Notes under the pieces: generated by a model
What the model was told of the DNA's origin: nothing
Databases searched by the model: none
What the model saw: only the letters and a program-made list of their open reading frames with translations
Position numbers and translations under genes: made by a program
DNA from: an uncultured Poribacteria bacterium
Lineage (GTDB): Bacteria > Poribacteria > WGA-4E > WGA-3G
Direction of reading: 5' to 3'
DNA length: 64,000 nucleotides
Assembly (NCBI GenBank): GCA_958296135.2
Contig: CATQHZ020000001.1
Span: 1,824,001 to 1,888,000 of the forward strand
Part shown: positions 51,737 to 54,937 of the stretch, piece after piece
Numbering within the stretch: position 1 is the stretch's first letter
Layout: each line of letters begins with the position of its first letter

Positions 51737-53493
51737 TTATCCATCTGTAACGGGATGCATGTTGTAGGGCAGTTGACAAAACGTAATGCCCATCGGAGTC
51801 AGGTCCTTCTGACTCATGAACTTATGCGCGCCCCAGACATACGCCTTCTTTCCCGCCGCTTTGCACTGCGCAGCGATTTGTGCCGCACGCGCACCATCTA
51901 ACGCAGCGGCGTTGCTCTCTAAAAAGGCGAGAGTCGGTTCATAGATGAGGTAGAAACGGAGGGTTTCGGTTTCCCCGAAAAAGAAGTCTTCTCGGCGCGC
52001 GACAGCGTCAAGCGAACTCCCTGTTGCGACATAGGCGATGTAGTTCGCCAAGGTCACGTAAGAAGGTAAGGTTTCGCCGGAGAGCATGCCTGCCTCATCG
52101 ATAGGTTCGCCGAGCTCGCAGTAGGTAAAAGAACCGCCGAATCCCTGCCGAAGCGTCGCGTCTCTAGCAGAAGCCACGCCGTTGATGACGCGTCGGACGC
52201 GTTCTGCAGTGATGTCATCGGCGTAGTCTTCACACTCAATGAGGATGAACTTACGATTGCCGCCGTCTTCTTTGTTGAGCGCGAGGACAGCATGCGCCGT
52301 GGTGCCACTGCCGGCGAAGGAATCAAGGATGATGTCGCCCGGGCCGGTTACCGCCTCAAAGAGCGGCTTTAACACCTCTTCATCTTTGGGGAACGGGAAA
52401 GGTTTGCCGAGTAGCGAACGTAATCGCTTTGTAGCGGCGCGGCCATCTTTATAGAAAACGCTGTAAGGTGTCTCGTATTCAGATTCTTTCAGGTAAACTT
52501 TAACGGTGAGAACAAACGTTTCATCTGCTCCAAACCGAATCCGATTATCCGCGATGAGGGCGTTCATTCGCTGTTCTGTATAAACCCAACCGCGCGAAGG
52601 AACAACGCAGTCCTCGCCTGTTATCGGATGGAGGACAGGATACCGTGCTCCGTTGCCGCCCGGTGCAGAGGCATCAGAGGCATGATAGAGTCCACGACTA
52701 TCCACATAACAGTAATGTCTGTGCCGCTTAGCTGAATGGCCATCGGGGAGCCCTTTAAACCATGCAGCCAATTCTCCTTCGATTTTCGGAAAGTCTTGCC
52801 CGTGTTTCCGCGCAAGTTCCGTGTGTTTTTTATAGATGTCTTCAAGGCCTTGCTTCCGAACGCGCCACGTAGTTCCCGATTGATTCAGGAATTCGTGGTT
52901 GTTGAGGTAGCACAAGATGTAATTGTGCGAATTGGAGAAAAGCCTTGCGTTGTTTTTCCGCCCGGCCGCCCAGACAAATTGCCCGACGAAGTTTCCATCG
53001 GGGAAAATCCGTCGCGCATCGAAAATCTCATCCATGATAGCACGGAGGAGATGCACCTCGTTATCGTCAATAGAGATGAAAATCACACCATCTTCGGAGA
53101 GCAACTCACGTAAGAGGTGCAAGCGCGGCCACATCATGCACAACCACTTATCGTGACGCTCTAAGTCTTCAACGTCAATCGGGCTGTTTGTCGTCAACCA
53201 CCGCTGCATTATCGGGCTAGTGACGTTATCGTTGTAAACCCAGCCTTCGTTGCCGGTGTTATAGGGCGGATCGATGTAGATGCACTTAATTTTCCCCGCA
53301 TATTTCGGGAGGAGTGCCTTGAGCGCGTGCAGATTATCGCCGTGAATGATGAGGTTCTCATCCAACGAGGGCTGGTTTACCCCCCCCCTTCAAATTTTAA
53401 GGATTTGGCTGCATCTACTTCCAGCGTGCGAAACGGCACGGTAAGGTGATGGGAATAGATAAATTGTTTGCCTCTGAAATCGAGTGTAGGCAT
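51737..53493 (-). CDS. mod: Type III Mod DNA methyltransferase; the 5' part is out of frame at a G9 tract (53380-53388)
   Basis: ATG 53493 gives MPTLDFRGKQFIYSHHLTVPFRTLEVDAAKSLKFEGGG-stop. The -1 frame continues VNQPSLDENLIIHGDNLHAL...YIDPPYNTG...DSFAGSGTT. Confidence 0.9.
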
Positions 53494-53540
53494 CCGGTTT
53501 TCCTAGTTTCGTCCTCGCTGTTATCCGCAACAGCGAGGAC
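53310..53540 (-). repeat. Direct repeat copy A (hairpin + RBS + mod 5' end)
   Basis: Near-identical to 54169-54408; differs by two substitutions and a 9-bp indel. Confidence 0.95.
53511..53540. other. Perfect 12-bp-stem hairpin upstream of mod (second copy at 54379-54408)
   Basis: GTCCTCGCTGTT-ATCCGC-AACAGCGAGGAC; no adjacent U-tract on either strand. Confidence 0.8.
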
Positions 53541-53550
53541 AAGTTGGATC

Positions 53551-53763
53551 TCATACGGCGATGTCAACTACCTCAAACGCGTCTTCACCGCTGTGTTTTG
53601 CTTGCTGCGCGTCATACTCCAAAATGTCGAGAAGCGCGGATTGCAGGCTTTCCAGCAGTTCTTCCCGTGTCCGTTCTTGGCAATTCACGCCAGAAATTTC
53701 ACGGATCCATCCAATCCACCATTCGCCGGTGTATTGGATTTGCGCGGTATAGATTTGTGACAT
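53551..53763 (-). CDS. hicB: HicB-family antitoxin (short, no DNA-binding domain)
   Basis: YTAQIQYTGEWWIGWIREISGVNCQERTREELLESL; paralog of 54598-54810. Confidence 0.88.
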   Translation of the reverse strand: MSQIYTAQIQYTGEWWIGWIREISGVNCQERTREELLESLQSALLDILEYDAQQAKHSGEDAFEVVDIAV

Positions 53764-53793
53764 TTTCAGTCTCCCTCTCTGGTTTATGAATTC

Positions 53794-53829
53794 ATTATCG
53801 CGTACATGTGCGGTTTTGTCAAATTAAAA
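53794..53829 (-). promoter_or_regulatory. sigma70-type promoter upstream of hicB (homologous to 54901-54937)
   Basis: TTGACA-17-GATAAT; shares TTTTAATTTGACAAAA and GCGATAAT with the second copy. Confidence 0.65.
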
Positions 53830-53956
53830 TGATACGGACAGACTCGCATTGCAACGAGTGTGGATATATTTCATTCGTCTGCCCCTTAAGACTGATTAAT
53901 GCCAAACCAAACGTCTTGGCATACCTAGTTATCAGAAACGGCGAAGTCCGAACAGA

Positions 53957-54142
53957 TTATGGACGAGGAACCTCTAAATCTTTACAGATTTTTTTGGCAA
54001 GTCCATTATCAATCTCAGTATGCCTCGGGACCACGGTGCGAGTATTCAGGTCTGCATTAGCCCACACTGAGTGCCTACGTCCTTCCCGGACCTGATGGCA
54101 TCCCTGCTGTCTAAGGTGTTTGATCAATCGTTTCAATTTCAT
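53957..54142 (-). CDS. hicA: HicA-family mRNA interferase toxin
   Basis: LIKHLRQQGC..VREGRRHS...VPRHTEI..GLAKKICKDL; strong RBS AAGGAGG. Confidence 0.9.
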   Translation of the reverse strand: MKLKRLIKHLRQQGCHQVREGRRHSVWANADLNTRTVVPRHTEIDNGLAKKICKDLEVPRP

Positions 54143-54168
54143 TGAAACTTAACCTCCTTGTCCTCGTT

Positions 54169-54408
54169 AGGAGTGCCTTGAGCGCATGCAGGTTATCGCC
54201 GTGAATGATGAGGTTCTCATCCAACGAGGGCTGGTTTACCCCCCCCCTTCAAAATTTACATTTTTTAAGGATTTGGCTGCATCTACTTCCAGCGTGCGAA
54301 ACGGCACGGTAAGGTGATGGGAATAGATAAATTGTTTGCCTCTGAAATCGAGTGTAGGCATCCGGTTTTCCTAGTTTCGTCCTCGCTGTTATCCGCAACA
54401 GCGAGGAC
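54169..54408 (-). pseudogene. Direct repeat copy B: truncated 5' end of mod with its hairpin and RBS
   Basis: ATG 54361 gives MPTLDFRG...KSLKNVNFEGGG-stop with the same G9 tract. Homology to mod ends abruptly after ...HALKALL at 54169. Confidence 0.9.
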
Positions 54409-54415
54409 GGTAGGG

Positions 54416-54601
54416 TTATGGACGTGGAATCTTCAAATCTTTACAGATTCTCTTGACAAGCCCCTCAGGAATCTCATTATGCCGAGGGACCGAGGTCTTG
54501 GTATTGAGACTTGAATTACCCCATCGCGAGTGCCGGCCGCCTTCCCGAATAAAATGGCAGCCGTGTTTTCTGAGGTGCTGAATCAATGCCCTTCGTCTCA
54601 T
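54416..54601 (-). CDS. hicA: HicA-family toxin
   Basis: LIQHLRKHGC.FIREGGRHS...VPRHNEI.EGLVKRICKDL; start overlaps the hicB stop (ATGA). Confidence 0.9.
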   Translation of the reverse strand: MRRRALIQHLRKHGCHFIREGGRHSRWGNSSLNTKTSVPRHNEIPEGLVKRICKDLKIPRP

Positions 54602-54810
54602 AGTTGGATAGTGATTTCCTGATACCCAGCTTCCGCGTCCCGGATAGCTTCTTCCCGATTGAATTCTATCGTTTCGCGAAGCGTGATTTCCAGGGTATTC
54701 AGCAATTCGTCACGGGTGCGTTCCTGGCAATTGACCCCGGGAATCTCTTGTATCCAACCGAGCCACCATCCGTCACTCTGTTGGATAACGGCTGTGTAAG
54801 TTTGGGACAT
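54598..54810 (-). CDS. hicB: HicB-family antitoxin (short)
   Basis: MSQTYTAVIQQSDGWWLGWIQEIPGVNCQERTRDELL; RBS AAGGAG upstream of ATG 54810. Confidence 0.9.
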   Translation of the reverse strand: MSQTYTAVIQQSDGWWLGWIQEIPGVNCQERTRDELLNTLEITLRETIEFNREEAIRDAEAGYQEITIQL

Positions 54811-54900
54811 CTCTTGCTCCTTTTCGACATGCATGCGAGTTTGCAGATTCGCCCAATATCCTATTTACCGGTGTATTGGGTTTAAGGCGCGAGTAATGAT

Positions 54901-54937
54901 ATTATCGCATTAATTGCGCAATTTTGTCAAATTAAAA
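54901..54937 (-). promoter_or_regulatory. sigma70-type promoter for hicB-hicA, abutting the bioF stop codon
   Basis: TTGACA-18-GATAAT. Confidence 0.6.

Follow-up and report, generated by a model that had tools for sequence, protein, structure and literature searches.

The 64,000-nt window of uncultured Candidatus Poribacteria DNA analyzed here harbors hicA and hicB toxin-antitoxin (TA) genes, two copies of a hairpin, and a truncated mod gene, all stacked between a bioF-like gene and a type III restriction-modification (R-M) system. We consider it likely that this arrangement is the fixed scar of illegitimate recombination combined with gene conversion, located in a rapidly rearranging cassette slot in front of a type III R-M system with a slippery tract in its mod gene. 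The stacked blocks are probably the product of an accidental duplication, i.e., a rearrangement scar and not a device for cassette exchange. The original prediction on this DNA had given the order bioF, promoter P1, hicB1, hicA1, hairpin, mod stub, hicA2, promoter P2, hicB2, hairpin, mod, and res, which is borne out by the layout of the open reading frames (ORFs). Positions are given in window coordinates (prefix w) and all genes of the locus lie on the minus strand; the genome under study is designated G000, the other two genomes of its genus G001 and G002. RBS denotes a ribosome-binding site.

w54932-56101, minus strand: bioF-like 8-amino-7-oxononanoate synthase (class I/II aminotransferase; Pfam PF00155, 1.4e-67)
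w54901-54930, minus strand: promoter P1, TTGACA-N18-GATAAT, preceded by TG (11/12 matches)
w54846-54883, minus strand: probable hicB2-like 5' remnant between P1 and hicB1 (74% identity over 38 nt to hicB2 coding sequence at w53704-53741)
w54598-54810, minus strand: hicB1, candidate 70-aa HicB-family antitoxin without a detected DNA-binding domain (sub-threshold UPF0150 match; 4-nt overlap with the hicA1 start)
w54416-54601, minus strand: hicA1, HicA toxin (Pfam PF07927, 5.4e-13, 49.3 bits versus a cut-off of 27)
w54169-54408, minus strand: distal repeat copy from the repeat alignment, with hairpin (w54379-54408), leader with RBS, and mod start (ATG at w54361) plus the first 193 nt of mod, including a G9 tract (w54239-54247)
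w54139-54168, minus strand: putative hicBx remnant, the last 9-10 codons of a deleted hicB (reads NEDKEVKFQ*)
w53957-54142, minus strand: hicA2, HicA toxin lacking an upstream hicB of its own (Pfam PF07927, 2e-10, 41 bits versus a cut-off of 27)
w53794-53822, minus strand: promoter P2, TTGACA-N17-GATAAT (11/12 matches)
w53551-53763, minus strand: hicB2, candidate HicB-family antitoxin without a following hicA (homologs named HicB-family)
w53310-53540, minus strand: proximal repeat copy from the repeat alignment, with hairpin (w53511-53540), leader, and the first 184 nt of the full mod
w51737-53493, minus strand: type III mod in two frames, 38 N-terminal codons (w53493-53377) and a 542-codon body (w53365-51737)
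w49018-51672, minus strand: type III res (Pfam ResIII, PF04851; PADLOC REase_III 6.3e-234, full-length alignment)

The duplication is apparent as a direct repeat, w53310-53540 (231 nt) and w54169-54408 (240 nt); the two copies agree at 229 positions and are set apart by two substitutions and a 9-bp indel. The shorter copy comprises the hairpin, the leader, and the first 184 nt of mod; the longer one lies 868 bp upstream, and the two copies bracket hicA2, P2, and hicB2. The repeat begins at the first base of the hairpin, in agreement with the original prediction, which had placed its end exactly there. At the far end of the duplication, nt +193 of mod (from the ATG; from the hairpin, it is nt 240 of the distal copy) is joined to what read as the last codons of a hicB, designated hicBx, and this non-homologous junction lacks a hairpin. 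The 30 nt leading from the stub to hicA2 read NEDKEVKFQ*, the stop codon overlapping the hicA2 start as ATGA and the hicA2 RBS AAGGAGG being located inside. Among the family loci with a close hicA homolog, 28 of 29 have a hicB overlapping the hicA start, with HicB C-termini such as ...YEEVKIAV* and ...EVKIAV*. As the remnant matches this arrangement, hicA2 appears to have formerly followed its own hicB, and we infer that w54139-54168 is what is left of the deleted hicBx. The best relatives of hicA2 within the family are at most 70% identical, all of them being preceded by hicB.

Short-read contigs of four public runs (X1-X4), obtained from one sample that is possibly the source of the genome, were placed on w53100-55100. 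In all four runs, a contig of 688-689 nt covers w53511-54198 including the mod/hicBx junction, and its depth matches that of the two flanks (41.6 versus 40.1 and 40.9 in X1, 108.5 versus 106.5 and 102.5 in X2, 25.1 versus 27.5 and 22 in X3, 136.5 versus 143.2 and 130 in X4). A repeat-internal contig of 120 nt shows approximately twice the single-copy depth (83 in X1, 216.6 in X2, 49.2 in X3, 282.3 in X4). This 1:1:1:2 depth pattern and the contig over the junction therefore speak against an assembly chimera, and they fit a flank-repeat-block-repeat-flank order in essentially all cells. A chimera of two strains, a caveat attached to the original prediction, would have joined two strain variants through their common mod 5' sequence, for which the metagenome-type source of the genome and the allele-like changes between the repeat copies could be quoted. 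However, independent de Bruijn contigs of four runs cross the non-homologous mod/hicBx junction, and mixed strains would be expected to differ in depth and could not have produced this junction, which leaves such an artefact extremely unlikely. Excised, inverted, or circular joints, anticipated in the original prediction, are absent from the X1-X4 contigs, a weak piece of evidence as contigs drop rare forms and leave them invisible.

Alignment of the stub to the full mod and to a paralogous mod at C1:3449 kb revealed a mosaic. Nucleotides 1-43 of the stub follow the local mod at all three informative sites (6, 33, and 43), and nt 100-193 follow the paralog at all three events (positions 170 and 176 and a 9-bp segment). 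As G002 and the other paralogs have this segment too, it is the full mod that has a 9-bp in-frame deletion private to it. A 126-nt contig over the 3' half of the stub has 2.3-2.6 times the single-copy depth, fitting the sharing of this sequence with the paralog. The mosaic in turn implies that homologous exchange among mod 5' ends has occurred, so that this part of the original prediction holds, with a partner located 1.57 Mb away. By this alignment, the paralog (L015, G000:C1:3449225-3449541, minus strand) would either have given the stub its 3' half or have received this sequence from it. Its 5' end is 91% identical to the focal mod and frameshifted at a G9 tract; it has its own conserved promoter (TTGCCA...TAAAAT) and is followed by a Rieske-type gene in place of res. 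On family level, the 5' 300 nt of mod have a match (E 1e-20 or better) in 82 of 112 genomes, often several per genome, and paired mod 5' ends 1.8-2.1 kb apart occur in several of them. In view of these pairs, a tandem mod-mod precursor followed by deletion is as plausible as a duplication.

Comparison within the genus showed that the interval in front of mod is variable. The bioF gene and P1 are common to all three genomes, P1 being conserved 3' of bioF in each of them; homology ends at w54900-54901, just after the P1 -10 box, and resumes from the hairpin region into mod-res, with the interval between differing in all three. The bioF gene can accordingly be read as the conserved left border of the variable interval, and the expectation of variable cassette content across relatives was confirmed by three genomes with three different sets. 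G001 carries P1, two TIR-like genes (PF10137, PADLOC PDC-S35), hicB2, a degenerate hairpin, and an in-frame mod. G002 carries P1, dispersed repeats, P2 with a truncated hicB2, further repeats, hicB1, two TIR-like genes, the hairpin, and an in-frame mod. Homology of G002 to G000 starts ~18 nt before the hairpin, in the apparent last hicB2 codons, and this breakpoint thus does not fall at the hairpin as had been proposed. G001 shares the hicB2-hairpin junction, and since its hicB2-hairpin-mod block is 90% identical to that of G000, the loss of hicA after hicB2 predates the duplication. A hicA at this locus (E 1e-12 or better) is absent from both relatives, G001 having no match and G002 a single one at C1:4940164.

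The TIR-like genes are also found beyond the genus. In 15 of the 29 distinct mod loci fetched from the family, mod is preceded within 1.5 kb by one or two of them (PF10137 CAP12/Pycsar TIR; PADLOC candidate PDC-S35), e.g., in L013 of G001 (1472-2713) and L014 (3049-4296) as well as in L007, L009, L030, L032, L036, and others. TIR-mod-res therefore seems to be a common module to which the hic genes are later additions, and it could be a conserved one. In the G001 mod (L013, 3090-3360), four in-frame 66-bp copies sit exactly at the site of the G tract, and the same 66-bp unit is dispersed through the G002 locus.

With respect to gene identities, Mod is assigned by PF01555 and, along its length, by PADLOC MTase_III (2.9e-164), and mod (end w51737) and res (start w51672) lie next to each other on one strand, as in a type III R-M system, with the mod frame interrupted. 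P1 and P2 share 20 of 23 nt, P2 also preceding hicB2 in G002, and the shared 16-mer w54922-54937 includes the bioF stop codon in the outer copy, just as originally described. The two TA pairs had been presented as diverged paralogs in opposite gene order. The paralogy stands (62% identity between HicA1 and HicA2, 48.5% between HicB1 and HicB2), and hicB1-hicA1 are coupled in one operon by their 4-nt overlap, but in the second pair an orphan toxin gene precedes an orphan antitoxin gene: hicA2 stands 190 nt ahead of hicB2, P2 lies in the gap, and hicA2 itself follows only the 30-nt hicB remnant. The HicB candidates match PF21748 (UPF0150) under the cut-off (E 0.1 and 0.014), have no NCBIfam or PADLOC match, and hit solved structures of CutA at chance level only (E 0.12 or weaker). 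Homologs at 66-67% identity carry HicB-family names at NCBI and JGI, and within the best 120 of 3330 homologs the named ones are mostly HicB-family, several being from Candidatus Poribacteria. The segment w54846-54883 is probably a remnant hicB2-like 5' end and hence a further scar, because its 74% identity to hicB2 exceeds that of the true homolog hicB1 (68%).

Based on these data, the following course of events can be proposed. The interval from bioF to mod-res would be a fast-changing slot for small defence cassettes such as HicBA pairs and TIR-like genes. An illegitimate join would have fused nt +193 of one mod copy to the last 9-10 codons of the hicB once preceding hicA2, at a time when hicB2 had already lost its own hicA; the two mod copies may have been sister, allelic, or tandem. 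This join would have left a dead mod stub that still has its hairpin leader and G9 tract, the orphan hicA2, and, downstream, P2-hicB2-hairpin-mod-res. The 3' half of the stub was presumably homogenized with, or derived from, the mod paralog 1.57 Mb away by gene conversion. No strong promoters other than P1 and P2 precede mod, so that mod-res probably owes its transcription to read-through from the TA cassettes. In that case, the hairpin would belong to the leader of the mod mRNA and serve as a stabilizing, processing, or attenuating stem, not as a DNA crossover site.

The hairpin has a 6-nt loop on a perfect stem, which is 12 bp long and reaches 13 bp in the distal copy; the folding z-scores are -3.7 and -5.5 for the two copies. 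Only 17 nt separate it from the mod ATG, and this gap is free of promoter-like sites. Neither an intrinsic terminator nor a known RNA family is supported: the terminator scan made no call at either hairpin, GAAACTAGGAAAACC follows the stem in place of a T/U run, and the sole Rfam match in the stretch (a snoRNA model, E 0.53) lies elsewhere. Sequences after hicA2, mod, and res fold no better than shuffles (z -1.2, -0.9, and 0.1) and thus contain no similar hairpin. The 10-bp inverted repeat CGAGGACAAG/CTTGTCCTCG, proposed to bracket the unique block, is present, with the CTTGTCCTCG arm sitting within the hicBx remnant beside the hicA2 RBS, but it is no meaningful bracket, as two perfect 10-mer inverted pairs were seen besides the hairpins versus ~2.1 expected per 2.1 kb by chance.

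The original prediction had regarded the hairpin or its CGAGGAC motif as a recombination site, and a site-specific element of this kind, attC-like or targeted by a hairpin-recognizing transposase, could swap HicBA cassettes and mod 5' ends. Such a role would account for one hairpin having three different left neighbors (hicA1 and hicB2 in G000, a TIR-like gene in G002), for the distal repeat beginning exactly at the hairpin base, for the varying cassette content of the relatives, and for a stem perfectly conserved across two species, G000 and G002 being identical at 30 of 30 positions with flanking mod DNA of ~85% identity. The distribution of the hairpin, however, is that of a single-locus feature. 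A pattern search allowing up to 3 mismatches retrieved only the two copies inside the duplication from G000 itself, and matches in 3 of 112 family genomes: twice in G000, once in G002 at the same locus, and once in G063, the latter (3 mismatches) being a chance match in unrelated AT-rich DNA without mod or hic genes. Scans for the exact stem gave no match in metagenome_contigs and one record in genome_contigs, which is the G002 locus of a Candidatus Poribacteria metagenome-assembled genome (MAG); on these grounds, a dispersed repeat was also rejected. Furthermore, no hairpin stands after hicA2 or at the P2 border, the duplication terminates on its other side in a simple illegitimate junction, the G002 homology begins 5' of the hairpin within coding sequence, the cassettes bring their own promoters, and, as had been stated from the outset, no recombinase is found among the 28 ORFs scanned (w33120-w59448). 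We regard a recombination-site role of the hairpin as very unlikely.

A different function would fall to the stub if it were a silent cassette, serving as conversion donor for the mod 5' end or its tract, or gating the translation of hicA2 through its own G tract. It retains the leader, RBS, ATG, and intact G9; gene conversion among mod 5' ends has happened; and with G10 its frame (ORF w54224-54111) would cross the RBS and start of hicA2 and stop 31 nt inside this gene. On the other hand, stub and expressed copy differ at three events only and hence offer little diversity, neither G001 nor G002 has a stub at the locus, and expression and switching of the stub are suppositions from the sequence. 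A silent cassette is improbable in our view, and gating of the orphan hicA2 by the stub tract, taken on its own, would be a highly unlikely function. Certain points nevertheless weigh against the recombination scar that we prefer. Its fixation is read from runs of one sample, possibly the assembly source, and none of the contigs listed extends over all of it. Three genomes are too few to fix the order of events (duplication versus deletion from a tandem precursor) or the direction of conversion, and both read-through and the RNA role of the hairpin are deduced. Moreover, the hairpin is degenerate in G001 despite 90% identical flanks (GTCC/GGAC and GCTAT/ATAGC are kept, the fold being no better than shuffles), and the homology boundary between hicA1 and the hairpin falls exactly at the hairpin base, making a role of the palindrome in breakage conceivable.

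Irrespective of the origin of the stacked blocks, the G tract of mod deserves separate attention. At G9 (w53380-53388), mod is out of frame: the N-terminal frame stops right after the tract and the body continues in another frame. G10 would restore the frame, giving ...FEGGGVNQPSLDENLIIHGDN, which matches relatives. The G002 mod has G7 at the tract site and is in frame (587 aa), and across relatives G7 is found in frame, G8 and G9 out of frame. A conserved N-terminal segment of ~33 aa precedes the variable linker that holds the tract. Of the mod 5' ends fetched from the family, all eight with a G/C tract of at least 8 are out of frame and all 21 without a tract are in frame, a count that leaves out three anchor-less loci. 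Turning mod on would then take a slippage from G9 to G10. The frameshift-controlled Mod of the original prediction is hence correct in that a homopolymer interrupts mod and determines the frame by its length, but its switching is only suggested.

Extension to the whole G000 genome gave 62 G/C runs of length 7, 28 of length 8, 44 of length 9, and 10 of length 10; the rise from 28 to 44 at length 9 is a bump unlike a simple decay. Tracts of length 9 and 10 are mostly located where a long open frame switches to another frame. Sampling of 20 long-ORF tract loci (length at least 9), nearly all of them out of frame at the tract, yielded 15 methyltransferase or R-M genes (5 Eco57I-type, 9 N6_N4_Mtase, 1 DUF1156) as well as a sulfatase, ligA, two LTD-domain proteins, and a cadherin/fn3 protein. 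Exact G9/C9 tracts number 44, 20, and 29 in the three genus genomes, 46 in G009, and 28 in G015, most others searched having 0-5. A family of methyltransferase-Mrr_cat fusions with a G/C9-10 tract ~350 nt into the gene is represented by L055 (C10, in frame) and L052 (G9, out of frame, needing +1). Similar places are C1:195552, 601424, 670244, 1453394, 2953827, and 4145681, including four further G9 places that share the open-frame geometry of L052 and L055, are likewise out of frame, and are candidate members by this geometry. The window itself holds a second type III-like Mod (w40575-42544, plus strand; PF12564 and PF01555; 548 aa) with a G9 tract (w42091-42099) near its C-terminal part, followed by a 151-aa ORF in another frame and without adjoining res. 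Runs of C17 and C88 at G000:C4:7759-7864, a small contig, and a G8-G12 cluster at C1:3588040-3588121 look like low-complexity or assembly-end artefacts.

Length variants at the tracts were looked for in the X1-X4 contigs. Contigs with one additional C are present in X3 only, at either tract (10.1 of 100.9 and 14.1 of 153.2), and may be error, as this run also has a private +T at w53673; none were found in X1, X2, and X4. Miscalling of homopolymers in long reads is not favored as the whole cause of the G9 tracts. In X1, X2, and X4, de Bruijn contigs of 126 nt carry 9 C, gap-free, at the stub tract; G001, an assembly of 210 contigs, also has 20 exact G9/C9 tracts; the shifted tracts need mixed +1 and -1 corrections (roughly 18 versus 10); and one paralog family contains both in-frame C10 and out-of-frame G9 copies. 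Because few tracts are in frame, miscalling is still possible, and for the excess of out-of-frame tracts both systematic miscalling and selection for the OFF state are on the table. The mod tract and similar tracts in at least 15 methyltransferase genes suggest phase variation. On a genomic scale, the Poribacteria lineage may possess G/C9-10 contingency tracts, mainly in R-M methyltransferases and carried by the mod of this locus, the stub, the second Mod of the window, and at least a dozen others, which would allow stochastic switching of defence and methylation within the sponge host; we put this forward tentatively.

Taken by themselves, the stacked blocks are an ordinary recombination by-product in a defence locus. 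They show TA genes parting from and rejoining their partners, and sequence passing between the 5' ends of paralogous mod genes. The homopolymer tracts represent the more useful lead for further work. If those carried by methyltransferase genes in this sponge symbiont are true switches, phase-variable R-M would extend beyond host-adapted pathogens, and methylome heterogeneity would matter in symbiont populations and in MAGs, where tract-bearing genes are routinely called pseudogenes. A full-text search found no literature linking Poribacteria or sponge symbionts with phase-variable R-M, as judged from the search results alone; a paper mentioning both Poribacteria and phase variation was considered incidental.

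Phase-variable type III mod genes, constituting phasevarions, are known from Haemophilus, Neisseria, Helicobacter, and Moraxella. The mod gene of this locus resembles them in carrying a simple-sequence tract in the 5' part of a type III mod ORF, the length of which sets the frame. It differs from them in that the host is an uncultured Candidatus Poribacteria bacterium, the tract lies in a variable linker, all eight tract-bearing mod 5' ends are out of frame, and the system is known here from sequence. The TA genes are akin to HicAB type II systems, with a HicA domain (PF07927) paired with a small HicB-family protein, whereas the order within this lineage is hicB then hicA with an ATGA overlap, the HicB protein comprises 70 aa with no DNA-binding domain detected, and the second pair is an orphan toxin upstream of an orphan antitoxin with its own promoter.

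Integron cassette arrays with their attC hairpins likewise consist of small same-strand cassettes, often TA genes, with a hairpin at the cassette 3' end. In contrast to them, the locus offers neither a nearby integrase (28 ORFs scanned) nor a hairpin after every cassette, one cassette being without it; the hairpin is a perfect 30-nt palindrome at one locus, and the cassettes have their own promoters. The closest parallel is provided by tandem duplication or deletion through illegitimate recombination, combined with gene conversion between paralogs, in defence islands. Like these, the locus has direct repeats of which one copy is mosaic, a single non-homologous junction, borders marked by gene remnants, and content that differs among close relatives; with no essential difference to be named, it belongs to this category.

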